Source of the DNA: Bdellovibrionales bacterium
Lineage (GTDB): Bacteria > Bdellovibrionota > UBA1018 > CAIMNF01
Assembly (NCBI GenBank): GCA_947502835.1
Contig: CANNBJ010000004.1
Coordinates: 295,669-359,668 of the forward strand
Reading direction: 5' to 3'
Length of the DNA stretch: 64,000 nt
The number at the start of each line of letters is the position of its first letter. Position 1 is the stretch's first letter. The notes under the pieces are model-generated. The model searched no databases. It was not told the origin of the DNA and was given only the letters and a program-made list of their open reading frames with translations. The position numbers were made by a program, and so were the translations under genes. This document shows positions 26,868 to 60,696 of this stretch, one piece after another.

Positions 26868-26979
26868 GAAGAGATTGGTACGACCTGTGTTGCGGCCGAC
26901 TCTCGCGAGTGAGGACACACGAAAGCGAGGCCGCAGGACGCGGCTCGGAGGCCAAAACACAGGTCGTACCAATCTCTTC
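26868..26979. repeat. palindromic repeat element copy 1 (conserved ~60-nt core flanked by a copy-specific perfect 24-bp inverted repeat)
   Basis: Arms gaagagattggtacgacctgtgtt / aacacaggtcgtaccaatctcttc. Core gccgactctcgcgag...cgaaagcgaggccgcaggacgcggctcggaggcc is shared, in reverse complement, with the copies at 47175, 48925 and 60541. Confidence 0.7.
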
Positions 26980-27029
26980 ATGGTGAGTGCAGCTCTCGGC
27001 TCAATCTTATTCAAAGATGGCGGTTGGAT

Positions 27030-29648
27030 TCAGCTTTCTGCAAGGAGACTCTTCAGGTCGCCTGCGGTAAGCGCCCCTTCTCCGAGTGCCAGTTTCTGTG
27101 CTTGTAGCTCTCCCATTCTCTCCTCGATCGAACCCTCGACCCTGAATCGATGAATCGTGACGGGCTTTTCCTGACCCATCCGATAGGCGCGATCCTCGGC
27201 CTGGAGTTCGACAAAGGGATTCCACCAGGGCTCACAGAAAATCACATGGCTTGCGCGGGTGAGATTGAGTCCGACCCCTCCGGCATGGAGCGAAAGCAGA
27301 AACACACTTGGGCGGTCTGAATCCTGAAACCTGCTGGTGACATCGCCTCTGTCTTTGGTTGAGCCATCGAGCCGTTGATACGGGAGGGAGTGCGCGCTCA
27401 CCCGTGTCTCGAGCAAATCAAGGAATGCGGTCCATTGGGAGTAGACGAGTACGGAATGTCCCGCATCCAGAAGGTCGGAGACCAGCGCAAGGATTGCCTC
27501 GAGTTTGGTGGAAGACGGAACAGAGCCGGTTCCGGCTGCCTGCTTGGCGCCGTTTTCTCCGGCGAAAAGCCCCTCGTGATTGCAGGCCTGACGTGCGCGC
27601 AGGAGTACCTCAAAGAGCGTGAGCGGCGACAGGGGTTCTCCCGCCTCCAGGATGCGAGCAAGGACCTCCTGTTTTGCCGCATCGAACACGGAGCGATAAA
27701 GCTTTGATTCGCCTTCCGTAAAGGAAACCGAATGCACAAGGTGGGTCTTGGGAGGGAGTTCTGTCAGGACCTCGGCTTTGGTCCGTCGCAAAAAGAAAGG
27801 TCTGCTGGTTTTCAGGTCGAGAGCTTCTTCATCATCAAAAAGCCCCGGAGAAACGAACTGAAACAAACTCCAAAGATCCCGCATGCGGTTTTGAATCGGC
27901 GTACCGGTAAGGGCGAGTCTGAAATCGGCAGTGAGGGTGCTTGTTGCGATCGCCGCCCGGGTTTCGGGATTCCGGATGATGTGAGCCTCGTCGAGCACCG
28001 CGATTTTCCAATGGATGCGCGCGAACCGTTCGGCCTCGGTTCCGAGCAGAGAGTAGGAAGTAAGAACCACATCGGCCTTGTCGTCCAATGTGCGCCCGGC
28101 CCCGTGGTATATGGATACTTTGAGCTCGGGACGGAACCGTGCCGCTTCTGCTTTCCAGTTTTGAAGAAGCGAGACCGGAACCACGATCAGAGAGGGGGAT
28201 TCGAGCACTGCAAGTGTCTGGAGGGTTTTTCCAAGCCCCATGTCGTCAGCCAGAATTGCGCCTCCAAGGCGCATCCATCGATCAAAGAGCCAGTTCACCC
28301 CCTCGTGTTGATAGGGCCGAAGCTTTCCCTGAAGTGATTTTGGAATCGCCGGCAGAAAGGAACCCTGTCCGGGGGGATTCGGGGATGTTCTTGCGAGCGA
28401 GGCCAGAAGCGCTCCGGTTTTTTGCCTCGTCTTCGGATTTCGCTCCCTCAGGCGGAGGAGTTTCAGGATGCTCCCGGATTCTGAAATCGCATCCTGGAGG
28501 GGGAGCTTGAACTCCCCAGCAAGCCAGCTTGAAAGTGCCGACTCGATTTCCGGAAACCGGTGCGAGTTTTTTGTGGCGTGGAGGCGAAAGAGTTCGGAGG
28601 CGGCGAGTGTTCTGGGGTGCCCCGGGTTCAGCTGAAACTGCTCGCGAGCAACATGGCTGAGTTCAGCCTCCTTTTTCGGATCGCGGATCGTGAGTGCACC
28701 GGCGGGCGCCTCATAGTGGATCCTGAGGGTTGCCGAAAATTGGTCCTCTGAAATCGGATGAAGGGTCAATTTCAATTCCGGTTCCACTTCGATGACAGAC
28801 GGGAAAAGTTCCTTGAGGTCCGGAAATTTCATCAAGAGAGAGGTTTCAAGATCGAGGCGTGAAAATCTCTTCGGAACCGCTGCAGGCTCATCAAAGCCGT
28901 AACCCAAAACGCCGTTTTCGATCCAAAGGCCTCCTTGAAGAATCTCAACTCCGGGTTCGCGAGTGAATTCAAGGGTCCATTCGTCTTTGGAGATCTCTCG
29001 AAGCGCGGGTTTGGGGCGTCGGGGAAGACGCTGGACCCGGAGAGTGGGGACGGAGGGGTGCCCGACCACCGGAAGCGGCGGCAGGTCGGTGAGTGCCAGA
29101 AGGACTTCCCGCCATTCGGGAGAGTCCGACGAATAGAGGCCATCAATTTTCAGGTCAACCGGTGAAAGAGCTGGAAGCGGACCCTCAAGCCTCCCGCTTT
29201 GTACGCCTCCCACCCATGCCACCAGTGAGGAGGGCAGGGGGATCTCCTCGTTCCCCTTTTTTAACGCGCGCTTTAGCTGCACTCGAGCAGGCTTTCCAGA
29301 ATCGTTTCCGAGATAAATCCATGAGTACTCGAGTCGCACGCTCGCGCTTTGGCTTTCCTCCGACTTCGAGTCCAGTGTTCCGTTCTCAAGGGCAAGAGCT
29401 GCGGCAACAATGTGGTGACAAGGTTCCACTTTGCTGCCACAATTGCAGTGGGCATCCTGATCTTCTGGCCAGAGGGTGACCTCGAATGCCAGGATCCGCT
29501 CTGCAGTGGTCACTTTGAAACGGAGTTCCTCCGAGACTCCTTCGGGGGAGGTTTTCCTGATTGAATTCAAAACGCGCGATGCTTGCACCCCCTTCGACCA
29601 GACTCCCGGCAGACACTCTTCCTTCAGGCTTTCGATAAATTTTTTCAT
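27030..29648 (-). CDS. SNF2-family helicase/ATPase with N-terminal SWIM zinc finger; start set at internal Met44 to avoid overlapping the divergent phoH2 start
   Basis: SWIM CxC...CxH: AHCNCGSKVEPCHHI. SNF2 motifs LADDMGLGKT (Walker A-like), DEAH box in VLDEAHIIRN, and helicase C motifs. ORF track lists 27030..29777. Confidence 0.75.
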   Translation of the reverse strand: MKKFIESLKEECLPGVWSKGVQASRVLNSIRKTSPEGVSEELRFKVTTAERILAFEVTLWPEDQDAHCNCGSKVEPCHHIVAAALALENGTLDSKSEESQSASVRLEYSWIYLGNDSGKPARVQLKRALKKGNEEIPLPSSLVAWVGGVQSGRLEGPLPALSPVDLKIDGLYSSDSPEWREVLLALTDLPPLPVVGHPSVPTLRVQRLPRRPKPALREISKDEWTLEFTREPGVEILQGGLWIENGVLGYGFDEPAAVPKRFSRLDLETSLLMKFPDLKELFPSVIEVEPELKLTLHPISEDQFSATLRIHYEAPAGALTIRDPKKEAELSHVAREQFQLNPGHPRTLAASELFRLHATKNSHRFPEIESALSSWLAGEFKLPLQDAISESGSILKLLRLRERNPKTRQKTGALLASLARTSPNPPGQGSFLPAIPKSLQGKLRPYQHEGVNWLFDRWMRLGGAILADDMGLGKTLQTLAVLESPSLIVVPVSLLQNWKAEAARFRPELKVSIYHGAGRTLDDKADVVLTSYSLLGTEAERFARIHWKIAVLDEAHIIRNPETRAAIATSTLTADFRLALTGTPIQNRMRDLWSLFQFVSPGLFDDEEALDLKTSRPFFLRRTKAEVLTELPPKTHLVHSVSFTEGESKLYRSVFDAAKQEVLARILEAGEPLSPLTLFEVLLRARQACNHEGLFAGENGAKQAAGTGSVPSSTKLEAILALVSDLLDAGHSVLVYSQWTAFLDLLETRVSAHSLPYQRLDGSTKDRGDVTSRFQDSDRPSVFLLSLHAGGVGLNLTRASHVIFCEPWWNPFVELQAEDRAYRMGQEKPVTIHRFRVEGSIEERMGELQAQKLALGEGALTAGDLKSLLAES

Positions 29649-29748
29649 CGTGATGTTTTTGACTCGCGCGCCACACATCCTATGATACTTTTTAGGCAAG
29701 AGGGAGCGCTTTTTCACAACTCTCTCGAAGCCGGAAAAGGAGCACATC

Positions 29749-31098
29749 TTGAAAAAAGCGTTCATCCTCGACACCAATGTTCTGCTGTTTGATCCACTGG
29801 CGATTTACAAGCTCGGAGCAAATGATGTGATCATCCCGATTGTGGTGATCGAGGAGATCGACCGATTCAAGCGCGAGATGAGTGAAAATGGTCGTCACGC
29901 CCGGCATTTTTCGCGCCTGATCGATGAGATGAGAAAAACCGGAGAGCTCTCCAAAGGCGTGAAGCTACCGAATGGTGGTCAGCTCACTGTTGAACTCGGT
30001 GGCGGCGACATTCCTCTACCTTCAGAGCTCGGAATGGACAAGGCCGACAACAAGATCCTGGGCCTGGCCCTCATGCTGAAAAAAGAACAGCCAAGGCGCC
30101 CGATCCTGTTCCTCACAAAGGACGCAAACCTTCGGATCAAGGCCGATGCGCTTGGAATTGTGGCGGAAGATTATGAGCCCTCAAATGTCGAGCCAGAGCA
30201 GCTCTACACCGGCTCCTCCACAATCAAGGTCGATCCGAGTCTTGTGGATGAATTTTACGCAAACAAGCGATTGCCGTTCTCGGAGCGGATTTTCGAACAC
30301 GAAAAAGAAATCGCAAAAACCCTGTATCCGAACCAGTATGTGATTCTGAAGGATTATGCGAATCCCACGCACACCGCGATGGGGCGTTTTTCAAAGGAGC
30401 TTGAGTCGATCGTGCCGCTCGTGAAGCCGCCCGAAGGCCTTTGGGGGATTTTCCCGAAGAACGCGGAGCAGGCATTTGCGGTTGATGCGCTTCTCAATGA
30501 CGAAGTGAAACTTGTGAGCCTTCTCGGAAAGGCCGGTACAGGAAAGACCCTGTTTGCGATCGCGGCAGGTCTTGTAAAAACCGTGGATGAGGGAGTGTAT
30601 CACCGTTTGCTGGTATCAAGGCCCGTGTTTCCTCTCGGAAAGGACATCGGATTTTTGCCTGGAACGGTCGAAGAGAAGCTCAACCCATGGATGCAGCCCA
30701 TCTATGACAACGTGGACTTCTTGTTCGGTTCCTCTGCAAACCGCAACCGTCGGGGAGCGGGGAAGGGGGCGCAGGAACTCATGAATCAAGGACTTCTGCA
30801 AATCGAGCCGCTCACCTACATCCGGGGTCGTACGATTCCACAGCAGTATTTGATTGTGGATGAGTCGCAGAACCTGACTCCGCATGAAATCAAAACCATC
30901 ATCACCCGAGCCGGTGATGATACGAAGATCGTGCTCACCGGGGACTCGTATCAGATCGATAATCCTTATGTGGATGCAGCCAACAACGGGCTAGTGTACC
31001 TTGTGGACCGATTCAAGGATCAGTCGATTTCTGCGCACGTGACTTTCGTGAAGGGTGAGCGATCGAAGCTCTCTGAGCTTGCGAGTAATCTTTTGTAA
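29749..31098 (+). CDS. PhoH2-type protein (N-terminal PIN domain fused to a PhoH-like ATPase)
   Basis: PIN-like N-terminus FILDTNVLLFDP...IPIVVIEEID. PhoH Walker A LLGKAGTGKT. C-terminal YIRGRT and DESQNLTPHE motifs. Confidence 0.75.
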   Translation: MKKAFILDTNVLLFDPLAIYKLGANDVIIPIVVIEEIDRFKREMSENGRHARHFSRLIDEMRKTGELSKGVKLPNGGQLTVELGGGDIPLPSELGMDKADNKILGLALMLKKEQPRRPILFLTKDANLRIKADALGIVAEDYEPSNVEPEQLYTGSSTIKVDPSLVDEFYANKRLPFSERIFEHEKEIAKTLYPNQYVILKDYANPTHTAMGRFSKELESIVPLVKPPEGLWGIFPKNAEQAFAVDALLNDEVKLVSLLGKAGTGKTLFAIAAGLVKTVDEGVYHRLLVSRPVFPLGKDIGFLPGTVEEKLNPWMQPIYDNVDFLFGSSANRNRRGAGKGAQELMNQGLLQIEPLTYIRGRTIPQQYLIVDESQNLTPHEIKTIITRAGDDTKIVLTGDSYQIDNPYVDAANNGLVYLVDRFKDQSISAHVTFVKGERSKLSELASNLL

Positions 31099-31212
31099 GC
31101 GAGTTCGCTCACGGGTTTGCCAGAAACGGTTCAGACGGGATGAACAGATGAAGGTGCCGTTTGTCGTATTTTTGCTCGTTCAAGGTTTGATCATCAGCGA
31201 GGCAGTCCCGGT

Positions 31213-31530
31213 TCAGGTGAAGAACGGCTTGTTGTTGAGCTCGATTTCGTGCTCGAGATGCCGGCGGTAGGAGCTTGCCAGTAAGCGGAGTTCGTCGGTC
31301 TCTGCACTTGTTTCGAGTGCTCGGAAGAGAATCTTTCCCCGGACCATCATGGTGAGGCTCAGATTGTCTTTTTTGGAACGTTCCTCTTGAAAGCGAACCA
31401 TCTCTTCCAGGAGTTCCATTTTATTCATTCGGTTGATGAGAATTTGATAGTAGGGGTCATGACGAGCCATTCCCCTCTTGTTCCGTTCAGCGACTAAATC
31501 GATTAGAGTCCCGCCGTCCTCGCTCGCCAT
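31213..31530 (-). CDS. small hypothetical protein (105 aa) in an AT-rich segment
   Basis: ORF only; helical, charged composition. Confidence 0.3.
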   Translation of the reverse strand: MASEDGGTLIDLVAERNKRGMARHDPYYQILINRMNKMELLEEMVRFQEERSKKDNLSLTMMVRGKILFRALETSAETDELRLLASSYRRHLEHEIELNNKPFFT

Positions 31531-31706
31531 CCAATGAGATTGATTTCAATTGTTGTGCCATTGACTTGACGCGTCTAAATTAAATTTATTTCCTATGAAA
31601 TACATGAGTTTGCCGTTTTTCTAGGTCGGCACCTTATTTGACCGATGTATTTCGTACAAGAAAGTTTTACGTGAGTTGTCTTAGGTTGGGACGGTTTAGG
31701 ATGAGC

Positions 31707-32642
31707 TCAAAGTTCTACCCTGATCCCCAAGTTCGCACTGAAGCGGTTGAAGTCAGGGGTGGTCCTGTACTGATAGCCTTCGTTCCCCGAATCGGAGCTG
31801 ATGATCGTCATTTCTGGAATATCGAGATAAGTGAATCCAGCCTGAAGGTCCAGAAGGATATGAGGGATGATTTCAAAGAGTATTCCTCCCCCGACGGTGA
31901 TCGCGAGTCCTGTGCCTCTTTGTTTTTGTTCAGTCGCCAAGTCGAAATTATTAAATGATGCAGTTACTACGCTATATCCAACCGCAAGACGGGTGATGGG
32001 TCTGAGCTTGTTTTGGCCAAGGATTGCCTGCAATCCCAAGGAATATGAGTCCATCTGAAAGGTGCCCAGTCCTCGATACACCTGCTCTCCCAATGGCCAA
32101 GAACTATTGAGATTGAATGCGTAATCCTGATCTGCGAGTTCACGATTGAAGGATAGATAAATCCCGTAAGTCTTATTCAGCGTATATCCAAGTGTTCCCT
32201 CGTAGCCCATCTTGGATTTGAAGTCCGTTCCCGTTTGGGTTCCCACGTTGACCCCGGCTAATGAGAGGTTCTCACTAAATCCACGGGCTTGACGGCCTGT
32301 CACGTAGGAGAATCCTCCGCGAAATCCGAAAAAGACTTTCTTGCGGTTGATGACCTCCTCGTCGGTGGGTTTTCTGACCACCTTTGAGAAGCACGTTCGG
32401 GAGGCGCGATGTTCGACACCCGAAAGTCGAAACACCAGGGTCTCGGGTTTTTCGGGATCGGACTGGGTCACGAAGTTCTTCTTGGAGAATGTATCCCCGG
32501 ATGCAGGAGTCCATTTCACGCCGTCAAATCGCTCGACTCCGCAGTCTTTGGAGCCGTGGAATGTTTTTAGGTCCCCTGAATGAGCGGCTTGAGCAAGTGC
32601 GAGAAAAGACAAGAGAGGGATCAGGGCGATTTTCCAGGGCAC
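31707..32642 (-). CDS. outer-membrane beta-barrel protein (OmpA-N/porin-like)
   Basis: Signal peptide MPWKIALIPLLSFLALAQAAHS. Alternating beta-strand pattern. Aromatic-rich C-terminal strands. Confidence 0.55.
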   Translation of the reverse strand: MPWKIALIPLLSFLALAQAAHSGDLKTFHGSKDCGVERFDGVKWTPASGDTFSKKNFVTQSDPEKPETLVFRLSGVEHRASRTCFSKVVRKPTDEEVINRKKVFFGFRGGFSYVTGRQARGFSENLSLAGVNVGTQTGTDFKSKMGYEGTLGYTLNKTYGIYLSFNRELADQDYAFNLNSSWPLGEQVYRGLGTFQMDSYSLGLQAILGQNKLRPITRLAVGYSVVTASFNNFDLATEQKQRGTGLAITVGGGILFEIIPHILLDLQAGFTYLDIPEMTIISSDSGNEGYQYRTTPDFNRFSANLGIRVEL

Positions 32643-32789
32643 AATTCAATTGAATCGCAAGTTGCCCTCAAAGGGAACACCTGGAGCGAGATTCAGGCCG
32701 GGGCGGGGCAGTTTGATGGTTTTTTGACAGTCTCACGCGAGCTCAACTTTTTTCGCGGCCCTTCCGATCTGTCTTTTGAGGACGTGTCT

Positions 32790-33458: not shown

Positions 33459-33460
33459 GC

Positions 33461-35526: not shown

Positions 35527-35527
35527 A

Positions 35528-35869: not shown

Positions 35870-35901
35870 GATGCCTGTACTTTGGCTAAGGTGGACCTGT
35901 T

Positions 35902-36261
35902 ATGTCAAAAAAACTTTTCGTGGGAAACCTGCCGTTCGAGGTCAATGATGCCGATCTGTCCACCGTGCTCGCTGTGGCGGGCAAAGTGGTGGAGGCGAAG
36001 GTGATCCTGAACAAAAAGACGGGACGATCCAAGGGCTATGGTTTCGTTGAGATGGAAACTGAGGAGCTGGCTCTTGAGGCGGTGAAGAAGTTCGAGGGAG
36101 CCACCTTGAACGAACGCCCACTGACCGTTCAGGTTGCAACTCCGAAGCAGGAGTCACAGGCAAAAAGTGACGAAGGTTCGACCGAGTCCGAATCGACAGA
36201 ATCCGAATCGACCGGAGCTTCTCCGGCGGGCGATGCTGCCGCCGACACCTCCTCAGCATGA
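35902..36261 (+). CDS. RRM-type RNA-binding protein with an acidic Ser/Glu-repeat tail
   Basis: RNP-2 LFVGNLPFEV and RNP-1 KGYGFVEM. Tail STESESTESEST. Confidence 0.75.
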   Translation: MSKKLFVGNLPFEVNDADLSTVLAVAGKVVEAKVILNKKTGRSKGYGFVEMETEELALEAVKKFEGATLNERPLTVQVATPKQESQAKSDEGSTESESTESESTGASPAGDAAADTSSA

Positions 36262-38165
36262 GTACCGATTGGGGTCAGTTCGGATTCTGCCGGGTTTCGG
36301 CTCTGCTTCCGAAAATCGAGCTTGGAAAGCCATTGCTCAATGCAGATAAAATCCTGTCGCTCCTGATTCGGGAATCAAAGGCCGGCGCGCAGGTCGTCTC
36401 GGCTCCCGAGCTTGCCATCACCGGATACACCTGCGAGGACCTTTTTCATTCGGAAACTCTGATTCGTGAATCCGAGCGTGCAATTCAGAAAATCGTCGAG
36501 GGCTCTCAAGGGCACGCGGGCCTTTGGATCATCGGTGGACCGCTTCGGGTGCAGGATGGGCGGCTTTTCAATGGGGCCTTCGTGATCTCCGAGGGAAAAC
36601 TTCTGGGCTTCAGTCCCAAGATTTTCCTCCCCAACATGGGCGAGTTCTACGAGAGAAGGTGGTTTGTCACCGGACGCACCCTTCATGAGAACGTGACCCA
36701 CCCGGTTTTGGGCAGTTTTTTCGCCTCGCCTCACCAGGTGTTTTCTTCGGGGCCGATGCGTGTCGGTGTCGAGATCTGTCATGACCTCTGGGCACCCGAG
36801 GCGCCGTCCACCGGACTCGCCCTTCGCGGTGCGAATCTGATCGTGAATCTCTCCGCGAGCAACGAGCTGGTGGGCAAGGCCCGCTTCCGCAAGAAGCTTG
36901 TCGAAGTGCAGTCACAGAAGATTCATTGCGCGTACATTTATTCGAGTTGCGGAACGAGCGAGTCGAGCAAGGACACGGTGTTCTCGGGCCACAGCTTCGC
37001 CTATGAACTGGGCAAGCTGATCGGTGAGTCCGAGCCTTTCAGCGAGAATGCAGATTGTTTCACCGTGGACTTTGATTTCGAGCGCATCCTGAACTCCCGA
37101 ACCAAGGACATTTGTTTCCTCGAGGCCGTCGAGCATCAGGAAAAAAAGGCGCTCAAGATCCATGAATTCCAGAAAAACGCGGCAACGCTCACGGATCTAC
37201 GCCGTTTTGTGGACCCGCATCCCTTTTTGAGCGAAATTCCTGATTTCGAGGATGTCCTCAACATTCAGGCGTACGGGCTTCTTCGGCGTGCGGAAAGTGC
37301 CGGGGCGAAGAGTCTTGTGGTCGGTGTCTCCGGAGGTTTGGACTCAACTCTTGCCTTGAAAGTTGCGGATCGTGCCCGTGCCTTGTGCGGGAACAAGTTG
37401 AAACTGATCGGGGTCACGCTCCCGGGGCCCGGCACTTCCGGAAAGACTCTCAATTTTGCCCATTCCTTGCTCGATGAACTCAAAGTGGATCAAAAGATCG
37501 AGGTTTCGATCTCGGAGGCGGTGAAGCAGCACCTGAAGGATCTCGGGAAACCCGAGAGTGATCGAAGCGTGGTGTACGAGAATGCCCAGGCGCGTGAGCG
37601 TACCCAGATTTTGTTTGATCTCGCAAACGAGAGCCAGGGCACGGTCGTTGGCACGGGTGACCTCTCCGAGCTTGCCCTTGGCTGGTGCACCTTCAATGCC
37701 GATCATATGGCCCATTATGCAGTGAACTCGGGAGTTCCAAAAACCGTCGTGCGGGGAATCGTCCAGTACTGGGCCGGGATTGCCGCATCAAGAAATCTCA
37801 AGGCGGTTCTTGAGAAGATCCTTGAATCCCCGATTTCCCCGGAATTGTTGCCGCCCGACGAGAAGGGCGAGATCTCGCAGGAGACGGAGGCCTTGATTGG
37901 ATCCTACGAACTCCATGATTTCTTTTTGTATGGCTTTTTGAGCGGAGGGTTTTCAAAAGAAAAGATCCTGCATCTTGCAAAAGTTGCCTTTGCGGGGGAT
38001 CGCGAGCTCGAGCCCCAGATTGAACGCGCGCACTCGATTTTTTTCGGACGATTCTTCTCGCAGCAATTCAAGCGGACCACGCTTCCTCCCGGTCCGAAGG
38101 TCCATTCTGTTTCGTTATCTCCCCGATCCGACTTCCGGCTCCCGGATGAGCTCAAGTCCTTGTGA
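36258..38165 (+). CDS. nadE: glutamine-dependent NAD+ synthetase (N-terminal CN-hydrolase domain plus C-terminal NAD synthase domain)
   Basis: Nitrilase-like N-domain. PP-loop SGGLDSTL. 635 aa. Confidence 0.8.
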   Translation: MSTDWGQFGFCRVSALLPKIELGKPLLNADKILSLLIRESKAGAQVVSAPELAITGYTCEDLFHSETLIRESERAIQKIVEGSQGHAGLWIIGGPLRVQDGRLFNGAFVISEGKLLGFSPKIFLPNMGEFYERRWFVTGRTLHENVTHPVLGSFFASPHQVFSSGPMRVGVEICHDLWAPEAPSTGLALRGANLIVNLSASNELVGKARFRKKLVEVQSQKIHCAYIYSSCGTSESSKDTVFSGHSFAYELGKLIGESEPFSENADCFTVDFDFERILNSRTKDICFLEAVEHQEKKALKIHEFQKNAATLTDLRRFVDPHPFLSEIPDFEDVLNIQAYGLLRRAESAGAKSLVVGVSGGLDSTLALKVADRARALCGNKLKLIGVTLPGPGTSGKTLNFAHSLLDELKVDQKIEVSISEAVKQHLKDLGKPESDRSVVYENAQARERTQILFDLANESQGTVVGTGDLSELALGWCTFNADHMAHYAVNSGVPKTVVRGIVQYWAGIAASRNLKAVLEKILESPISPELLPPDEKGEISQETEALIGSYELHDFFLYGFLSGGFSKEKILHLAKVAFAGDRELEPQIERAHSIFFGRFFSQQFKRTTLPPGPKVHSVSLSPRSDFRLPDELKSL

Positions 38166-38193
38166 GGCCTGCCCGAAGGAAAGGTTCAATGCC

Positions 38194-41473: not shown

Positions 41474-41486
41474 TGGGCGGATCATC

Positions 41487-47092: not shown

Positions 47093-47138
47093 TAGGCCCT
47101 CTTCCTTTAGCCAGGAAGTGGGCCTTTTTTTTGGCCCG
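47093..47138 (+). terminator. intrinsic terminator downstream of rpmG-rpmE
   Basis: Hairpin ggccctcttcc-tttagcca-ggaagtgggcc (11-bp stem with one mismatch) followed by T8. Confidence 0.65.
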
Positions 47139-47174
47139 CCGTGAGTGGGAGTTATTTCAAGTGATTTAGAGCTA

Positions 47175-47284
47175 CCTTGCTTTGGATTGATGGTTCTTTG
47201 GCCTCCATGCCGCATCCTGCGGCCTCGCTTTCGTCAGTCCTGACTCGCGAGAGTCGGCCAAAGAACCATCAATCCAAAGCAAGG
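47175..47284. repeat. palindromic repeat element copy 2 (conserved core, 29-bp perfect copy-specific arms)
   Basis: Arms ccttgctttggattgatggttctttggcc / ggccaaagaaccatcaatccaaagcaagg. Core ...gccgcatcctgcggcctcgctttcgtcagtcctgactcgcgagagtcggcc. Confidence 0.7.
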
Positions 47285-47386
47285 CGGACCAAAGCACCTG
47301 AACGAGTGCACCACTACGGAGGGCCAAAAAAATGACCGCATCTTGGCATTTTTGAGCAGACTTATTCTCAGGGGGTCTTTTCGTCG

Positions 47387-47420
47387 GGAGTTACGACTTT
47401 TTGAGCGAGCCAAGGATGGC
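47387..47420. repeat. 34-bp perfect direct repeat, copy A (overlaps the 3' end and stop codon of the AAA+ ATPase gene)
   Basis: ggagttacgactttttgagcgagccaaggatggc is identical to 48804-48837. Confidence 0.85.
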
Positions 47421-48557
47421 TCCTGCCCATAGACGTTGCAAGAAAAGCTCGTAAGGGAGAATCTCGATTCCGTCTTCGGTTTTCGAGGCCTCGCTGAATC
47501 TACCCACGATCATTCCCCGGGGGACTTTGGATTCTTTTAAAAACGCCCGAAGGCCCTTGAAGTGATCGTCCTTCACTTGTTTTGAAAATTTGATTTCAAT
47601 CGCAATTTCACGATCGATGATCAGATCCACCTCATAAGATTTGCTTCGCCAATAACTCATTTCACTCAATGACCTTGAATAAGAAAGGTAGCTTCTGACC
47701 TCTGTCATGATGAACTGCTCAAAGGAGATGCCGATGTCACTATGTGCCTCGCTCAGGTGAAACCTCTTACAGAGGAAATTTGCAACACCACAATCAAACC
47801 AGTACAACTTCGAGCGGCTACTGCCTTTGCGACTCATTCGAGACCGATAGGGCTCAAGCGTGAACGCGAGCAGCGTATCCTTCAGGACTTCGAGATGGTT
47901 CTCAATGGTACGGGCGGGAACACCCGAATCACTGGCGAGTGCTGCAAAATTTAATTCTTGTCCGTTTCCAAGGGCAGCAACTTCAAGGAATCGGACAAAA
48001 CGCTCGTAATTTCGAACCAGAGCTTCGGCCTTGATCTCCTCTGAAAGATAGGTTCGGACATAGGCTTTGAGGTCCTGAAGGGGCTCTTCTGATTGATAGA
48101 TTCGAGGCAGGCCTCCGTAATTCAGGTAGCGAATCAAGTCGAAGTCTGTGATTTCAGAATGACTCAGGGGAAATAAATGGAGTTCGCGCGCCCTCCCCGC
48201 GAGTAGATTGGCTCCACCTCGCTTGAGTTTCCGCACCGAGCTTCCCGTCAAAAGAAACCGTTTTTCGCTGTTTTCAATGAGACGGTGAACCTCATCGAGC
48301 AATTTCGGAAGCTTTTGAATCTCATCGATGACTACGAAGCGAGTTTCAGGTTTGATTTTCTCAGACAAGGCCTTGGGTCGAAGGAGCAGTTCCTCGTAAA
48401 GATCATCATCAAGTAGATCAAAAATCTGCGCGTCCGGAAGACGGGAGCGAACCAGCGATGATTTGCCGGTTCCTCTTGGACCAAAAAGGAAGAGGTTTGA
48501 TTTTTGTAGATGTGCTTCCAGCTTTAGGGATCGAGGATACATGTCGAAAGTATACAA
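47391..48557 (-). CDS. AAA+ ATPase with C-terminal DUF4143-type domain, in a low-GC island
   Basis: Walker A LFGPRGTGKSSL. Walker B VVIDEIQKLP. Architecture typical of the DUF4143 ATPase family. GC clearly lower than flanks. Confidence 0.7.
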   Translation of the reverse strand: MYTFDMYPRSLKLEAHLQKSNLFLFGPRGTGKSSLVRSRLPDAQIFDLLDDDLYEELLLRPKALSEKIKPETRFVVIDEIQKLPKLLDEVHRLIENSEKRFLLTGSSVRKLKRGGANLLAGRARELHLFPLSHSEITDFDLIRYLNYGGLPRIYQSEEPLQDLKAYVRTYLSEEIKAEALVRNYERFVRFLEVAALGNGQELNFAALASDSGVPARTIENHLEVLKDTLLAFTLEPYRSRMSRKGSSRSKLYWFDCGVANFLCKRFHLSEAHSDIGISFEQFIMTEVRSYLSYSRSLSEMSYWRSKSYEVDLIIDREIAIEIKFSKQVKDDHFKGLRAFLKESKVPRGMIVGRFSEASKTEDGIEILPYELFLQRLWAGAILGSLKKS

Positions 48558-48803
48558 TAAACGGCAATTACTTGCTGAAAAATAATCAAAATCGGCAACA
48601 CAATGCTGAAATATCTTTTAATAATGATTTCATAAACTTGTAATTGCCCGAGGCGGGGGCGATCTCTCGGAAGAATCCCTTTTCATCGGGCCTGGCCTTC
48701 AGCCGTGTGGAGGAGCCCCCCTTTTGATTGATGAATTTTTGAAACTGGCCTCGTTCGCCGTTGATGGTTGGAAGATCGAATCAGTAAACCCTTTCATTCA
48801 TCA

Positions 48804-48837
48804 GGAGTTACGACTTTTTGAGCGAGCCAAGGATGGC
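48804..48837. repeat. 34-bp perfect direct repeat, copy B (duplicate of the ATPase 3' end, about 250 bp upstream of the ATPase start)
   Basis: Identical to 47387-47420. Confidence 0.85.
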
Positions 48838-48924
48838 GACAGCGAAAAGAACAGGATGTTCGGGGGGAGTGCCAAGTGGTCTCTTTGAGTGGGCATGGCC
48901 TTTGGGCTTGTGGAGGCGAACCCC

Positions 48925-49020
48925 TTTGGTTCTTGGAGGTTTAGCCGACTCTTGCGAGTCAGGACTGACGAAAGCAAGGCCGCAGGATGCGGCTCGGAGG
49001 CTAAACCTCCAAGAGCCAAA
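48925..49020. repeat. palindromic repeat element copy 3 (reverse orientation relative to copy 2), nested inside a further 21-bp inverted repeat (48878-48898 / 49047-49067)
   Basis: Arms tttggttcttggaggtttagcc / ggctaaacctccaagagccaaa. Core gccgactcttgcgagtcaggactgacgaaagcaaggccgcaggatgcggctcggagg. Outer IR ggtctctttgagtgggcatgg versus ccatgcccactcaaagaggcc. Confidence 0.7.
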
Positions 49021-49074
49021 TGGGATAACCTACCTAAATCTAAATGCCATGCCCACTCAAAGAGGCCAGTTTGA

Positions 49075-49449: not shown

Positions 49450-49499
49450 GAAACCTTTATTTCACGAGACGGACCGGGTTGGAAGCCCAAGTTTGAACA

Positions 49500-50489: not shown

Positions 50490-50548
50490 GTGTTTCAGAC
50501 TAAAACAGTCCTTGGCAAGCGGGTTCTGCGTTGGTACCCATTGAAATC

Positions 50549-51850: not shown

Positions 51851-51856
51851 TCCGTC

Positions 51857-52625: not shown

Positions 52626-52736
52626 TCAAGGGCTCCTGTTTCTGCGAAGGTTCTCGGTCTTTTTTTGCAATTTGGCAAGCATCGAATTGAATTCCGGCCA
52701 TTGAAATCCGGGGAAGGTCTGGTAGAGTCGCGGGTC

Positions 52737-53159: not shown

Positions 53160-53199
53160 GGTTGATTTGAAAATGAATCCGGAGTGACTCCGGGGAGGT

Positions 53200-53949: not shown

Positions 53950-53950
53950 A

Positions 53951-54475: not shown

Positions 54476-54897
54476 GATCCCCCCATTTTCAAGATGGTTT
54501 CAAACTCGCGTGAGCCCACTTCCATGCAAGAAAGCCGTGATTGTTTCAGCAGCGGGAGGGAGGAGAGGGATTTGGTGGTCTTGATCTCGGCCAGTGTGAC
54601 GGGAGTCTCAAGCTTCAAAACGAACTCGACATCGATCTGGGACCAATCTCCCGGTTTTTCGGGATCAGGGTCCGGGTAGGCCTCCTTGCACACGCGGGCC
54701 ACTCCCACCACGGCGCGATCGTCGTTGCTGTGGTAGATCAGGACAAAATCCCCCTTTTTGCAGGTTCGGAGAACGTTTCGAGCCTGGAAGTTGCGGACAT
54801 GGTCCCAGTTGGTTCTCTTTTCTTCCGCAAATCGGTCGATGGAATAGACGTCGGGCTCGGATTTCAGGAGCCAGAATCGGGATGGGGCTTTTGGCAT
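54448..54897 (-). CDS. EVE (PUA-like) domain protein
   Basis: N-terminus MPKAPSRFWLLKSEPDVYSIDRF...NWDHVRNFQARNVLR...GDFVLIYHS matches the EVE domain pattern. Confidence 0.65.
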   Translation of the reverse strand: MPKAPSRFWLLKSEPDVYSIDRFAEEKRTNWDHVRNFQARNVLRTCKKGDFVLIYHSNDDRAVVGVARVCKEAYPDPDPEKPGDWSQIDVEFVLKLETPVTLAEIKTTKSLSSLPLLKQSRLSCMEVGSREFETILKMGGSWERFQARK

Positions 54898-54962
54898 GGT
54901 CTTTCCTTTATCAAAGAGGGCAGTCTTTGAAAAGACCTCGGATTTGATGGTAGGATCTGCTT

Positions 54963-55958
54963 ATGAACCGTGCTCATGGATGTTTTTCCTCAAAAGGCTT
55001 GGGTGTTCTCTCCGTCATGCTGATCCTGGAGTGCCTGACTGGCTGCATGCGGGGCAGTGGCTATCGAAAAGACCGGGAGTTTTATGACGAATCCCAAGGA
55101 GGGTATTACCAGGACCGGGATGGCTCGGATGCGAAATCCGAGGCTCTGGAGCGGCTGAAAGGGCCGAAAAAAAAGGTGCTTTTGCTCTCGTTTTGGAATG
55201 ACACTCCGGTCGGGGATGAGGGGCTTGGTGCCTTTGTCGCCGCAGAGCTGAAACGGGAGTTCTCGGTGGGAGGACGCATCTTGTTTCCCGAGGACGATCT
55301 TGTGAACACTGTGACGAAGGATTTTGTGGATGGGGACCGTGTGCAAGTATCCCAGTTGGTTCGCGAGGGCAGAAAATACGGAGTTTCCGCCGTGATCCTC
55401 GGACGGATTTCCAAGATCCAGTTCCGGCAAAGCCGCGAGGAGGTGGGGATTCTCCGTTCTGCGGAAAGTTCTGTGGTGGTGGATCTCGAGATGAAGGTGT
55501 TTGATGTGGCGACGGGCCGGGAAGTGGGCACTTACCCGAGGTCAGCGGCGGCCTCGAGTTCCACCCGGATTCTCATCGATGAGGATGCCATGACCAACAA
55601 GGCGGCCCGTGAGGAGCTCGCCAAGGAAGCGCTCTACCAAGCGGCGCAGAAGCTCATTCCGGATGCGGTTCTTGCGCTTGAAAAAATGGAGTGGCAGGGA
55701 CGGATCGCGAAAGTCGCGGGAAACAAGGTTTATATCAATGCAGGAAAGGCATCCGGGATTCTTGCAGGCGATATTTTGAAAGTGCTTTCGACCGGGGAGG
55801 ACATCATCGATCCTGTCACAAAGTCCTTTCTCGGGCACTCGGAGGGATTCCTGAAGGGGACCCTTGAGGTCAGTGATTTCATCGGCACGGACAGTGCGAT
55901 GGCAACAGTCCATACGGGCGGGAATTTTCAAGAAGGCGATGTGGTCCGTTTATATTAA
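54963..55958 (+). CDS. lipoprotein of unknown function
   Basis: Lipobox LILECLTGC. 331 aa. Confidence 0.5.
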   Translation: MNRAHGCFSSKGLGVLSVMLILECLTGCMRGSGYRKDREFYDESQGGYYQDRDGSDAKSEALERLKGPKKKVLLLSFWNDTPVGDEGLGAFVAAELKREFSVGGRILFPEDDLVNTVTKDFVDGDRVQVSQLVREGRKYGVSAVILGRISKIQFRQSREEVGILRSAESSVVVDLEMKVFDVATGREVGTYPRSAAASSSTRILIDEDAMTNKAAREELAKEALYQAAQKLIPDAVLALEKMEWQGRIAKVAGNKVYINAGKASGILAGDILKVLSTGEDIIDPVTKSFLGHSEGFLKGTLEVSDFIGTDSAMATVHTGGNFQEGDVVRLY

Positions 55959-56595
55959 CCGGCACACGCCGGATCATCCTTTTCGTTTTACGGATCTCCT
56001 CAAGCTTCAAGACGAGGTGCTTGAGTCCCTGCGCCCCGGTCGGGAGCGTGCGATCCTGTTTTCGGAGTTGGCGCCCACGCTCACCCTGGGAGCCCGGCAG
56101 ATTCATCTTGGGGATGAGCGCACGGAGTTCCTGAAAACCCTTCCCATCGAGGTGGTGGCAGGGGAGCGGGGTGGCAATGAAACCTGGCATGGTCCCGGCC
56201 AGTGGGTGGGCTTTGTTCTTGCCCCCCTTTTGGAGTTTTCGGGGCACGAGCGCGGGGTGAGGGCTGCCGTCATGAAAATGTTGAGCCTGCTTGAGCCGGT
56301 CGCGAAGATCTATCTTCCGGATGCGGCCATTGAGGACGGCTCGCGTCTGGGGATCTGGTCTTCTCAGGGGAAGGTTGCCTCCATTGGGATCAAGATCCGG
56401 GATGGATACACGAGCAGTGGATTTGCGCTCAATTGCGTGCCGAATCCGGCCGCGTTTTTAGGAATTGATCCGTGCGGGATCGCGAGTGCCCGGCCGGATT
56501 TCCTGTTCCGGGACGCAATCAAGCCCGAAACATGGGAGGAAGAATTCCAGAGGATCCCGGAGCTCATCCGGGAGTCGTTTGAAAAAAACGGATGA
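55939..56595 (+). CDS. lipB: lipoyl(octanoyl) transferase
   Basis: ELAPTLTLGARQ, ERGGNETWHGPGQWVGFVL and NCVPNPAAFLGIDPCGI motifs. Start at internal Met (track 55864). Confidence 0.75.
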   Translation: MWSVYINRHTPDHPFRFTDLLKLQDEVLESLRPGRERAILFSELAPTLTLGARQIHLGDERTEFLKTLPIEVVAGERGGNETWHGPGQWVGFVLAPLLEFSGHERGVRAAVMKMLSLLEPVAKIYLPDAAIEDGSRLGIWSSQGKVASIGIKIRDGYTSSGFALNCVPNPAAFLGIDPCGIASARPDFLFRDAIKPETWEEEFQRIPELIRESFEKNG

Positions 56596-56667
56596 GCTTC
56601 GTTTTTTTAAGTTCATTTTTTTAAACGGGTCTTGTTAAACTGTTTTTCCAAGGAGTGTGAGACCCTG

Positions 56668-56898
56668 ATGTCAAAACCAGTCGAACCAAGACCCCGAAAG
56701 CAAGCCCTGAGCATCCCCGGATACGGACAAGGGATTTGGTGGCTCATGGCCGCATCGGCCTTCGTTCTCTTTGCCTTGTTCGCTCTGGAATCGAACCGCG
56801 CGATTTCCGGCGGGCTGGGGATTGGGCCTCAGGTTGAGGTCGAGCGAATCCCCGCAGAAGAGGCCCGGCGCCTCGGAATTTCCCCGAAGCGCAGATAG
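56668..56898 (+). CDS. small single-TM protein, unknown function
   Basis: MSKPVEPRPRKQALSIPGYGQGIWWLMAASAFVLFALFAL. ORF track lists 56632..56898. Confidence 0.35.
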   Translation: MSKPVEPRPRKQALSIPGYGQGIWWLMAASAFVLFALFALESNRAISGGLGIGPQVEVERIPAEEARRLGISPKRR

Positions 56899-57080
56899 GT
56901 CGGATCGACTCCCTGGAAGTCGGCCTAATCTAGATTAATCAATCATTTCAATCTATTAAGGTGTTTTTTTCTAATCTACGACTAATTAAGTAAACTTTAT
57001 CGCCGAAATACCCGATAAAAATGATACGATACAGGAGGGTGGGGGAGATTCCCCCTCCATCCCATTCGTTGAGAGGGCAA

Positions 57081-57848
57081 ATGAACCAGATGCGGGGCTC
57101 ATGGGTGATTCGGAAACTCAAAAAAGGCATTCCTTTTTTGGTGGTGCTCTTTGCGCCTTTGTCCTGCGGACCGAAGTCCTCCTCCATCACCAAAGAGTGC
57201 ATTCTTCCGGTGGACCAAACCGGAACCATCACGGGGCGATGGACGGCAAAGCCCGTCCCGGTTGCGGTGATCGCAAATGATTTCAATTCCGCCGAGCTCT
57301 CCGCCATCTCTGCTGCGATCTCAACCTGGAATTCGTTTTTCAAGGCATCCAAGGGCTTTTCCCTGTATCTCTCGAATTCCGTGCCTGCCGGAACACAGAC
57401 CTACACGATCGCCACGGTGTGCGGGCAGAATCTTGTTTCGGCAAACGGGTTTATGGGACCGGTTCTGATCCAGAAGGCGCGCTCCGGATGGCCCGAGAAT
57501 TGGAAATCGGCCATGGCTCTGACAAGCACCTGTCCCGTCGCCGTTGCGGGTTCACAGTTCCGGTCCTTCATTTCCGGGGTGCTACAAATCAATTTCCAGC
57601 ATTTTTTCAATAGCGGCCAGCCGATCCCGGATCTCCAAAGCGTGGTCGCTCACGAGCTCGGTCACCTTCTTGGTCTCGATCATTCCTGTTCCGGAAGCGG
57701 TTCGCAGGGGATCCCCAGTTGTTCCGGTGCGGACCCCGAGTACCTCGAGGCGCTCATGTACCCTGCGCTCGGATTTGATGGCAATCAGGGAAGGATCAGT
57801 CGCTCCGTTCAGAAGAATGACCAGGAACGCGCAAATTGCCTTTATTAG
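57081..57848 (+). CDS. metzincin-type zinc metalloprotease lipoprotein
   Basis: Lipobox FAPLSCG. Extended zincin motif HELGHLLGLDHS (HExxHxxGxxH). Confidence 0.65.
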   Translation: MNQMRGSWVIRKLKKGIPFLVVLFAPLSCGPKSSSITKECILPVDQTGTITGRWTAKPVPVAVIANDFNSAELSAISAAISTWNSFFKASKGFSLYLSNSVPAGTQTYTIATVCGQNLVSANGFMGPVLIQKARSGWPENWKSAMALTSTCPVAVAGSQFRSFISGVLQINFQHFFNSGQPIPDLQSVVAHELGHLLGLDHSCSGSGSQGIPSCSGADPEYLEALMYPALGFDGNQGRISRSVQKNDQERANCLY

Positions 57849-57870
57849 TGCCCGATGCTAGCGTCGGGGC

Positions 57871-60534
57871 ATGTCGAAATCCGGAAAATCATTTAAAAAA
57901 GTCGAAGGAGTGGATCCGTCCTCGCTTCCCAAGAATCTCGAATTCCCGAAGGTCGAGGCCGAGCTTCAGGCGCGCTGGAGCACTGAGGGCACGTACAGGT
58001 TTCACGAAAATGACACCCGCCCCGTTTTTGCTGTCGACACTCCTCCTCCCACGGTTTCGGGCTCTCTCCATGTGGGCCATATCTTCAGCTACACTCAGAC
58101 CGACATCCTGGCGCGATTCCAGCGCATGAAGGGAAAGAACGTCTTCTATCCGATGGGATGGGACGACAATGGGCTTCCGACCGAGCGGAGGGTGCAGAAC
58201 TTTTTCCACATCCGCTGTGAGGCAAATCAGCCCTACGAGCAGGGGCTTGATCTGCCGCCGATTCTCTCGACGATGACCGAAAAGGAACTCGAGGCAAAGA
58301 AGCTCCCGCAGCGGAACCTTTCGCGCAAAAACTTCATCGAGCATTGCCACAAACTCACACATGAGGACGAAAAGCTTTTCAAGAAACTCTGGAGCCACAT
58401 CGGGTTGTCAGTCGACTGGAGTCTTGAGTACGCGACCATCGACGATCACTCGCGCAAGATCGCACAGTTGAGTTTTTTGGATCTTCACCGCAAGAACGAG
58501 CTGTATCAGGTGGAAGCCCCGACCCTTTGGGATACCGACTTCCAGACCGCAGTGGCGCAGGCGGAACTCGAGGACCGTGAGATTCCGGGCGCCTTCCACG
58601 ACATTGAGTTCGAGGTTGAGGGCGGAGGCACATTCACGATCGCCACCACGAGGCCCGAGTTGCTTGCTGCCTGTGTGGGGATCACCACGCATCCATCGGA
58701 TGAGCGGTATCGCTCGCTCATTGGAAAGTTTGCGGTAAGCCCCCTGTTCGGGGTGCGAGTGCCGATTTTTGGCAGCGAGCTTGTGAATCCCGAGAAGGGG
58801 ACAGGGATCCTGATGGTCTGTACGTTCGGGGATCAAACCGACGTGCAGTGGTGGCGGGAACAGAAGCTGCCGCTCCGCCAGATCATCGGCCGGGACGGAA
58901 GGCTTCAGCCCGTGAATTTTTCGTCCCCGTTGTTTCCCTCACGGAATCCGGAAGAGGCGAGCTCGAATTATCAGGTCATTGTCGGGAAGACCGTGAAGCA
59001 GGCCCAGAAGGCCATCGTCGAAATCCTGCAAGCAAAGGGCGCGCTCAAGAATCCTCCCAAGCCCATTCAGCACGCCGTGAAGTTTTATGAAAAGGGCGAT
59101 CGGCCCGTGGAGATCCTGACCACTCGCCAGTGGTTCGTGAAACTCGTCGACAAAAAAGAAAAAATCATCGAGTACGGATCCAAAATCCAGTGGCATCCGG
59201 AGTTCATGTACTCTCGTTTCAAGAACTGGACTGAGAATCTCAGCATCGACTGGTGCATCAGCCGGCAGCGATTCTTCGGGGTCAGCATTCCGGTGTGGTA
59301 CCCGCTCGATGCAAAGGGGGCGATCGAGTACTCGCGCCCTCTGATGCCGTCACAGGCCCAGCTTCCGGTTGACCCCATGTCGGATGTCCCGGAAGGCTAT
59401 CAGGAATCCCAGCGCGGAAAGCCGGGTGGATTCATCGGAGAGTCGGATGTGTTCGACACCTGGTTCACCTCTTCGCTCACTCCGCAGCTCGGATCGCATT
59501 GGGAGGTGAATCCCGAACGCCACCGCAAGCTCTTTCCGATGGATGTTCGTCCACAGTCACACGAGATCATCCGCACGTGGGCGTTTTATACGATCGCAAA
59601 AGCGATGCTCCATGAAGAAAAAATCCCCTGGAAGCACATTGTGATCTCTGGCTGGGTGCTTGATCCGGATCGGAAGAAAATGTCAAAATCCAAGGGCAAT
59701 GTCGTGACGCCCTCGCAGTTTCTGGACGAGTTCGGTGCGGATGCGGTCCGCTACTGGTCTGGTCTTGCGCGCTACGGGGTCGATACGGCCTTTGATCCGG
59801 GCATCATGAAGATCGGGCGCAGGCTTGCCATGAAGCTCTTCAATGCGGGCAAGTTCGTGCTTGCCCAGGGGGCCATCGAGGGTGCGATCACAGAACCTCT
59901 CGATTTGGCGTTTTTGGCAAAGCTGAAAAAGCAGGTCGAAGATGCAGGGCGTGCCTTTGAAAACTTCGAGCCTGCCCAGGCGCTCATGGAGACGGAGAAG
60001 TTTTTCTGGTCGCACTTCACGGATTCTTATCTTGAGCTGGTGAAGGGCAGAACCTGGGGTGAGAAAACCTCCGCATCCGACCTTGCTGCCAAGGCTTCTG
60101 CGGTTCATGCGCTTCGTTTAGGACTGAGTGCCTTCCTCAGGCTCTTTGCACCCTTCCTTCCGTACACCACCGAAGAAGTGTGGAGCTATGGATTCACTGC
60201 GGTTTCCAAGAGCATCCATCATGCGACCTTCCCGCATGCGGGGGATTTCGACGGGGTCACAGCAGGGGATCCTGCGATCTTTGATGCGGCAATGGCAGCC
60301 CAGAGCGTGATCAACCAGCAAAAAACGGTGTCGAAGGTTTCGATTGCAAGGCCTGTGGTAAAGGCGGGCATGCGAGCCAATTCAAAAACAATCGAGAGCT
60401 TTCTTCCCGCGGCTCGTGATGTGATGGCCGCCTCCAAGGTAGAGCAGATCGACTGGATCAAGGATGAGGCTTTGTCTGCAAATGAGTTCCGGGTGGAAAC
60501 CATCGAATACGGACCGGAGCCGGTAAAGACCTAG
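57871..60534 (+). CDS. valS: valine--tRNA ligase (short, archaeal/eukaryote-like type without C-terminal coiled coil)
   Basis: HIGH-like HVGHIFSY. KMSKS. Editing domain. 887 aa. Confidence 0.85.
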   Translation: MSKSGKSFKKVEGVDPSSLPKNLEFPKVEAELQARWSTEGTYRFHENDTRPVFAVDTPPPTVSGSLHVGHIFSYTQTDILARFQRMKGKNVFYPMGWDDNGLPTERRVQNFFHIRCEANQPYEQGLDLPPILSTMTEKELEAKKLPQRNLSRKNFIEHCHKLTHEDEKLFKKLWSHIGLSVDWSLEYATIDDHSRKIAQLSFLDLHRKNELYQVEAPTLWDTDFQTAVAQAELEDREIPGAFHDIEFEVEGGGTFTIATTRPELLAACVGITTHPSDERYRSLIGKFAVSPLFGVRVPIFGSELVNPEKGTGILMVCTFGDQTDVQWWREQKLPLRQIIGRDGRLQPVNFSSPLFPSRNPEEASSNYQVIVGKTVKQAQKAIVEILQAKGALKNPPKPIQHAVKFYEKGDRPVEILTTRQWFVKLVDKKEKIIEYGSKIQWHPEFMYSRFKNWTENLSIDWCISRQRFFGVSIPVWYPLDAKGAIEYSRPLMPSQAQLPVDPMSDVPEGYQESQRGKPGGFIGESDVFDTWFTSSLTPQLGSHWEVNPERHRKLFPMDVRPQSHEIIRTWAFYTIAKAMLHEEKIPWKHIVISGWVLDPDRKKMSKSKGNVVTPSQFLDEFGADAVRYWSGLARYGVDTAFDPGIMKIGRRLAMKLFNAGKFVLAQGAIEGAITEPLDLAFLAKLKKQVEDAGRAFENFEPAQALMETEKFFWSHFTDSYLELVKGRTWGEKTSASDLAAKASAVHALRLGLSAFLRLFAPFLPYTTEEVWSYGFTAVSKSIHHATFPHAGDFDGVTAGDPAIFDAAMAAQSVINQQKTVSKVSIARPVVKAGMRANSKTIESFLPAARDVMAASKVEQIDWIKDEALSANEFRVETIEYGPEPVKT

Positions 60535-60540
60535 ACGCTT

Positions 60541-60649
60541 AAACTGTCTTTTGGGATTGGTATTTTGTCTCCGAGCCGCATCCTGCGGCCTCGCTTTCGC
60601 GCATCCTGCGCTCGCGAGAGTCGGCAAAATACAAATCCCAAACGACAGT
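60541..60649. repeat. palindromic repeat element copy 4 (conserved core, 26-bp arms); imperfect outer arms extend to 60523-60667 and include the valS stop codon
   Basis: Arms aactgtcttttgggattggtattttg / caaaatacaaatcccaaacgacagtt. Core ctccgagccgcatcctgcggcctcgctttcgcgcatcctgcgctcgcgagagtcggc. Outer arms gtaaagacc / gggtctttac. Confidence 0.7.
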
Positions 60650-60696
60650 TCATGCCTCGGGTCTTTACGCTTCCACGCACCTTATTTTCAATTTAG

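Follow-up and report, generated by a model that had tools for sequence, protein, structure and literature searches.

How can a family of intergenic palindromes keep one and the same centre while its arms differ from copy to copy, yet still pair with each other? The question is raised by a 64,000-nucleotide stretch of a Bdellovibrionales genome (contig CANNBJ010000004.1, positions 295,669 to 359,668; hereafter the window), in which an earlier note had recognised four palindromes of about 110 nt. Each was described as a shared core between copy-specific, perfectly complementary arms, and the pattern was taken as a sign of selection on structure, or of an insertion mechanism duplicating its target in inverted form. 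The explanation that we find best, with a probability of roughly 0.7, is that the palindromes represent the inner stem plus the tip of a non-autonomous DNA transposon of about 198-202 bp (a MITE, short for miniature inverted-repeat transposable element), whose arms were matched after insertion by copying of DNA from one arm to the other.

The palindromes as the centre of a larger element

The anatomy of the element was read from the flanks of 41 copies laid out together (window copies are numbered 1 to 4 as in Table 1; L-numbers are the labels of fetched loci). Palindromy ran about 45 nt past the ends given in the earlier note, and the palindromes described there proved to be the centre of a larger, palindromic and non-coding element of about 198-202 bp. 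In copy 3, palindromy extended over 73 nt on each side at 81%, the outermost part being a perfect 17-nt motif (48881-48897 and 49048-49064). A terminal inverted repeat of 25-27 bp, CAAACTGGCCTCTTTGAGTGGGCATGG...CCATGCCCACTCAAAGAGGCCAGTTTG, starting with CAAACTGG, was conserved across loci. CAAACTGGCCTCTTTGAGTGGGCATGG and its complement were present at both ends of 13 paired copies, with the variant AAACTGCCCCCTTTGATTGTGCTT used in one metagenome-assembled genome (MAG), and the distance from AACTGG to AACTGG was 197-199 nt in 12 of 13 copies. From outside to inside, the element consists of the terminal repeat, about 20 nt that are poorly self-complementary yet conserved within subfamilies, an inner stem of 24-26 bp and a tip of 56-57 nt. 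The G+C content of the family is about 50-60%. Folded over its full length (202 nt) as single-stranded DNA, copy 2 reached -67.3 kcal/mol (z = -11.4).

Well-preserved copies are flanked by 9-bp direct target duplications. The two sides agreed at 9 of 9 positions in L036 (TATCAGCTT) and in L044 (GCATATTGC), at 7 of 9 in L038 and L045 and, by eye from the flanks, at 8 of 9 in L021; shuffled pairs of left and right flanks scored at least 7/9 in about 5% of trials. At older copies, including those of the window, the duplication is decayed or absent. Within the window, the terminal repeats are clear in copy 3 only. Those of copy 1 (about 12 of 25 consensus matches) and copy 2 (at ~47130-47154 and ~47306-47330) are partial and degenerate, and none is recognisable in copy 4.

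The element is small and non-coding, is dispersed in many copies, and has both terminal inverted repeats and target duplications; judged by its sequence, it is therefore a MITE. An insertion sequence whose ends match would have supplied, in trans, the DDE-type transposase that moved it. The earlier view that this was not a conventional MITE came from boundaries drawn too narrowly, since the conserved terminal repeats and the direct duplications lie outside them. An inverted duplication of the target does not fit either: the 9-bp duplications are direct and external to the element, and the sequence of the arms is that of the family. Insertion of the core into pre-existing unrelated palindromes, or with inverted target duplication, was likewise ruled out by the family consensus of the arms and the shared outer motifs.

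The tip, 56 nt long, forms a three-way junction, the parts of which are hairpin A, helix P3 and hairpin B; drawing by hand and RNAalifold gave the same structure. The shared core and small hairpin of the earlier note were recovered, the latter as GCCGCR-TCC-TGCGGC, and the CCTTGC...GCAAG pair noticed in copy 3 is real and recurs in 5 of 26 aligned copies. What had been given as N10 is a second small covarying hairpin, whose first pair is UA in 13, CG in 11 and GC in 2 of the 26 copies. The stems of the tip covary, while the loops (TCC) and junction bases are fixed, between the E1 and E2 subtypes too. Hairpin A has G·U in 16 and A-U in 10 of the 26 copies, on one strand only. Of 32 copies, 31 agreed with the consensus of the tip at 42-46 of 46 positions; the remaining one scored 32/46. 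We also observed a 24-nt string, TCGCCTACGCATCCTGCTCCGGCG, common to L005 (1946-1969) and L039 (811-834), where it starts an insert of about 58-66 nt; the insert interrupts hairpin B in one copy and hairpin A in the other. Either a very small nested insertion or an expansion of the hairpin motif CGCATCCTGC by template switching could explain it.

The exact core was found 23 times when 185,579 species, represented by one genome each, were scanned, and every occurrence is in one of three MAGs labelled Bdellovibrionales. A metagenome scan added 10 true copies on freshwater-type contigs; four other matches (L033, L037, L040 and L042) were rejected as chance 22-mer matches inside unrelated sequence. 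A covariance model built on 26 copies then retrieved further, diverged copies, among them the E2 subtype, in which the first hairpin reads GAACA-TCC-TGTTC instead of the usual CCGCA-TCC-TGCGG. In total, more than 45 copies at different loci were collected. There was no match to an Rfam family at gathering or E-value thresholds, and copy 3 had no blastn match in plasmids. The window itself is 100% identical, over the 8 kb compared, to the 436-kb ENA metagenome contig ERZ27280207 k141_2525812.

Inversion of the tip and proposed copying between arms

The arms are less perfect and less individual than they had seemed. Copy 2 indeed pairs at 29 of 29 positions, whereas copies 1, 3 and 4 have 2, 3 and 3 mismatches, respectively, in 28 counted pairs. 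Nor are the arms unrelated or completely copy-specific: they are diverged homologues, with a weak consensus across the 26 copies (about TTGGAATGATTCGGTTTTT adjoining the core, of which TTT/AAA is nearly invariant) and a mean identity of 44% between 5' arms of different copies. Moreover, copy 3 belongs to a subfamily with L035, L036, L038 and L044, all at different loci and alike over their whole length.

Watson-Crick pairs filled 88-97% of cells at distances 2-24 from the core and 40-70% beyond. Beyond this 24-bp boundary come a conserved T·T mismatch and, next, a conserved A-T pair. Paired cells amounted to 89.7%, compared with 68.5% in shuffles and about 40% with partners slid, and changes had occurred on both sides in 26 of 28 arm pairs. 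G·T occupied about 1% of the inner-stem cells, close to its share of random mismatches, and A·C was as common or commoner.

Comparison of strains with 96.6-98% identical flanks revealed both compensated changes and a conversion tract. L029, with flanks 98% identical, has GGATTAG/CTAATCC where window copy 3 has GGTTTAG/CTAAACC, a compensated transversion pair. In L026, the half nearer the gene agrees with the folded-back distal half of window copy 3 at 69 of 73 positions, but with its own counterpart at only 61 of 73. This amounts to a tract of at least 45 nt copied from one arm onto the other. Outside this set of strains, an A-T pair has changed to T-A between L004 and L007. The tip was also found inverted, relative to the orthologous flank between L004 and L007 (more distant relatives, with arms unchanged), and relative to the element's own outer parts in L043 as compared with copy 3 and L036. 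An apparent core inversion between L009 and L012 was rejected, these being different elements at neighbouring positions.

The inner arms would thus become copy-specific yet complementary after insertion, a change in one arm being copied to the other by replication template switching or by arm-to-arm gene conversion at the inverted repeat. The tip would be flipped by the same copying process or by recombination between the arms. The arm-copying step is deduced from the strain comparisons and from what is known of quasipalindromes. Template switching at inverted repeats homogenises arms and inverts spacers (PMC8604942, PMC7202029), and has been shown to create and maintain hairpins (PMC8794818). 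The Ripley model of quasipalindrome template-switch mutation predicts arm rewriting and spacer inversion between unchanged arms, both of which are seen here, although it describes a mutational process and not an element family. The spacer inversions of PMC8604942 concern spacers of a few bases, whereas the flipped spacer is 56-57 nt here; recombination between the 24-29-bp arms is therefore an equally good route for the tip flip.

In our reading, the 'covariation' is for the most part concerted evolution, at the DNA level, of one arm with the other, selection being possible in addition. The earlier note was right that arm covariation is strong. Selection on RNA is not needed to explain it, however, as a mutational process of copying accounts for the compensated changes, the long tract and the lack of G·T enrichment. 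Of the two substrates then proposed, structured RNA and cruciform DNA, the second comes closer to the truth.

Copies in the window, neighbours and rearrangement

The whole 64-kb window was searched with a 25-nt core pattern, up to 3 mismatches being allowed. Matches were obtained at 26920-26944(-), 47209-47233(+), 48969-48993(-) and 60575-60599(+), with a chance expectation of 0 for this pattern in the window. The covariance model, run with filters off, found no fifth copy in the window; a weak match at 36188-36300 (12.8 bits, E = 0.73) was rejected because it lies inside called open reading frames (ORFs) and lacks the core motif. Both approaches therefore agree with the earlier note on exactly four copies and on their places (Table 1).

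Table 1. Elements of the family, and the gene bracketed by two of them, in the window (positions counted from its first letter).
Feature	Position	Strand	Remarks
Copy 1, full element	26825..27022	-	outer limits approximate; core 26896-26951; covariance-model match 26870-26977
Copy 2, full element	47129..47331	+	core 47202-47257; perfect 29-bp inner arms 47175-47203 and 47256-47284
AAA_14/DUF4143 ATPase gene	47391..48557	-	bracketed by copies 2 and 3
Truncated E2-type relative, same superfamily	48737..48861	-	hairpin A is GAACATCCTGTTC; 5' half lost; abuts copy 3
Copy 3, best-preserved element	48872..49073	-	terminal inverted repeats 48874-48898 and 49047-49071; core 48945-49000
Copy 4	60497..60695	+	outer limits approximate; core 60568-60624; covariance-model match 60542-60650

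Elements of the family are intergenic, stand directly after gene ends and occur in both orientations. Copy 1 has the stop of an SNF2-helicase gene (27030) on one side and glmS on the other, and copy 3 starts only a few bases from the stop of a DUF4234 gene (49075). Copy 2 comes directly after an apparent terminator hairpin with a T8 run, downstream of rpmE (L31). This apparent intrinsic terminator, GGCCCTCTTCCTTTAGCCAGGAAGTGGGCC followed by T8 at 47093-47137, was not flagged by a simple terminator scan, and its T run is overlapped by copy 2, at the 5' end of the element. Copy 4 holds in its outer arm the stop codon (60532-60534) of a gene for a class I aminoacyl-tRNA synthetase of 887 aa, the last ~12 codons and stop of which (60520-60534) are inside the element; the next gene, a convergent GNAT gene, ends at 60697. 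At several other loci, the upstream gene extends 17-40 nt into the element. In this way, such insertions seem to have given upstream genes new ends.

Between strains with 97-100% identical flanks, elements were present or absent, and rearranged. Copy 3 is found in the window strain and absent from strains with 97-98.5% identical flanks. At the place of the truncated E2 relative, related strains that lack copy 3 have a complete E2. As an empty site, L001/L008 was rejected as unclean, because a different repeat family fills it in L008. The AAA_14/DUF4143 gene between copies 2 and 3, which has a weak PD-(D/E)XK match, is similarly present in the window strain and absent in the strains 97-98.5% identical to it (L023, L024 and L026 compared). 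Strains without the gene carry a complete E2 element, an additional copy that has no arms and whose flank is duplicated, or a hybrid. The hybrid, found in L026, is a mini-palindrome, CCTCCATGCCGCGTCCTGCGGCTCGGAGG, in which two inverted cores are fused at hairpin A; read as such a fusion, it demonstrates that cores recombine with one another. Five loci have adjacent pairs of copies.

The junctions of presence and absence of the AAA_14/DUF4143 gene were observed inside or beside repeat elements. A role of this gene as the mobilising enzyme was rejected, because the homologues whose DNA was fetched, 86% and 65% identical, have no element nearby. We therefore treat the gene as variable cargo and not as part of the element; the gene family is very large (7,836 matches). 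In MAG JAGWXK01 (L007 5495-8000), a DUF4143 fragment and a HepT-like gene occur in a 2.9-kb strain-specific segment that adjoins an element and is bounded by direct copies of the terminal-repeat motif. In GCA_027488645.1, a solo half-element (L024 11306-11383), made of an arm and a terminal repeat and 81% identical to copy 3, was seen at the edge of a strain-specific segment with an 87-aa ORF and a PIF1/AAA_30 helicase gene, absent in the window strain.

A second, unrelated family of intergenic repeats adjoins elements in MAGs (L008 1245-1424 and L012 6380-6550). It reads ...AAGATGCGAAGT...GAGGCGT...ACGCCGGAAT...TTGGACGCAGCAG...CCTTTTCAGCAGTCTG. The string GCATCTTGGCATTTTTGAGCAGAC at 47338-47365, flanking copy 2, is similar to it, and no other copy of this family was found in the window.

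Known systems and alternative explanations

Several described MITEs resemble the present one. According to the summaries of Chunjie (Geobacter uraniireducens Rf4; Chen et al. 2008) in PMC3184786 and PMC10969869, that element measures 178-235 bp and has terminal repeats of ~21 bp and 9-bp direct repeats. These summaries also give it a very stable long hairpin, an intergenic location sometimes overlapping gene ends, and many partial copies without terminal repeats or duplications, as here. Unlike our family, Chunjie is A+T-rich, in a comparison made by description and not by sequence, and the passages on it in these two reviews describe no invariant three-way-junction centre. QMITE2 of Coxiella burnetii is ~190 bp long; its terminal repeats measure 23-29 bp and its direct repeats 7-9 bp, and its end-less copies resemble REP palindromes (PMC10969869), as window copies 1, 2 and 4 do. 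It differs in host and sequence, and some QMITE copies give small RNAs (PMC10969869). In the Bacillus cereus group, bcr1 (~155 bp, 5-bp duplications) is a small mobile repeat with a branched cruciform-like fold, in which pairing is kept by compensatory changes; it is transcribed, and the compensation was read as occurring at the RNA level (PMC3184786). The present family has instead 9-bp duplications, no enrichment of G·U and no strand bias.

Several points weigh against a MITE whose arms are matched by copying. In many copies, among them copies 1 and 4 of the window, neither terminal repeats nor duplications can be recognised, so that for these a MITE origin follows only from the homology of their centre. 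The window, all fetched loci and viral contigs yielded no autonomous insertion sequence with matching ends. Indeed, a terminal-repeat scan of all loci returned MITE ends and solo ends only, and 24 of 24 matches to element ends in viral contigs were due to chance. The sharp drop in pairing after about 24 bp would fit a defined functional stem equally well, and large bacterial populations could fix compensatory pairs quickly by selection. Finally, the tip is conserved where terminal repeats are unrecognisable, and orthologous cores differ at 0-1 positions against a divergence of about 10-12% in the flanks. A transposase normally needs the ends only, so that MITE biology does not account for this conservation. 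The constancy of the tip could result from selection for something read on the folded DNA, or from gene conversion among the 56-nt cores.

Explanations in which the centre itself has a function were considered too. The stem and three-way junction might form a module of their own, recognised in its folded or cruciform state by a protein of the host or of the element, or might act as a flip-flop switch, with MITEs spreading the module and selection retaining it after decay of the ends. We consider a functional module of this kind unlikely. As regards an invertible promoter switch (inverton), the 56-nt core is flipped between orthologues; no promoter-like site was detected in any copy, no recombinase gene is adjacent, and the segment is very short. 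Alternatively, the stem and tip may be kept for a cruciform-binding, junction-binding or nucleoid protein of the host, the MITE being a vehicle only. Where the terminal repeats are gone, the core (42-46/46) and the inner stem (20-24/24) are conserved, orthologous cores hardly change compared with their flanks, and the stem has a sharp boundary with its T·T mismatch and A-T pair; independence of orientation would also suit a cruciform, which presents both strands. We know of no partner protein, however, and the family is confined to a very narrow clade. Gene conversion among identical 56-nt cores could moreover conserve them without function, the hybrid in L026 indicating that cores recombine. 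We find domestication by the host very unlikely.

Selection could also act on RNA, if tip and stem were transcribed as a 3'-untranslated-region element, a terminator or stabiliser, or a small RNA. The covariation of stems around fixed loops and junction bases, seen between E1 and E2 too, would be expected from this, as would the G·U or A-U of hairpin A on a single strand and the location of elements directly after stop codons. In addition, hairpin A and a T-rich run in copy 3 were flagged as terminator-like, and bcr1 MITEs are transcribed, with compensatory changes (PMC3184786). But orientation relative to flanking genes is random: between genes of the same direction, 11 elements are co-directional and 9 antisense (counts based on codon-trained gene calls, which reproduce the database gene calls around rpmE/rpmG). 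The tip is flipped between orthologues, the 24-bp stem shows no excess of G·T, with A·C as common or commoner, and Rfam gives no match. Copy 2 lies beyond the apparent rpmE terminator, and compensated changes and a 45-nt conversion tract have arisen already within 2-3% divergence. A structured RNA is therefore an improbable explanation. A hammerhead or other ribozyme was rejected as a candidate: the reverse strand reads CUCGCGAG...CGAAAG without the catalytic CUGAUGA, and Rfam gave no match.

Mobility of another type was envisaged as well, namely that the element moves like a REPIN, as folded single-stranded DNA, through a hairpin-recognising HUH/Y1 (RAYT-type) or similar enzyme that binds the three-way junction, so that only hairpin-competent copies spread and the arms stay complementary. 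REPINs show hairpin-preserving mutations, and here the folded tip is conserved, the stems are variable and pairing is strictly Watson-Crick. Moreover, a gene stands between two inverted copies, much as a RAYT gene does between REPINs. This gene encodes, however, an AAA_14/DUF4143 ATPase and not a Y1 transposase, and its fetched homologues lack an element nearby. The 9-bp direct duplications and long (25-bp) terminal repeats are marks of a DDE and not of a Y1 enzyme, and no GTAG-type REP features were seen, which makes such a mode of movement highly improbable. An integron attC site was rejected too. In attC sites the outer R''/R' (GTTRRRY) is conserved and the centre variable, and they form cassette ends in an array beside an integrase. 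In our element the centre is conserved and the stem variable, the reverse of attC, and copies are located between housekeeping genes (aminoacyl-tRNA synthetase, glmS, rpmE), not in an array.

Altogether, a MITE with arms rewritten by DNA copying remains our preferred explanation, and the family is a previously undescribed one, hosted by uncultured and poorly studied Bdellovibrionales MAGs. For these genomes, the elements mark hot spots of rearrangement, with breakpoints at hairpin A and the edge of the core and with gain or loss of a gene between two copies, which matters for their assembly and comparison. If the stem and tip were read as a folded module, they would be genomic DNA signals of a new, structure-specific class in Bdellovibrionales. 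More generally, the family offers a natural example of misleading covariation, in which copy-specific stems around a conserved loop mimic selection on RNA, and the strain comparisons catch the rewriting of stems from arm to arm, and the flipping of the loop, at the DNA level.

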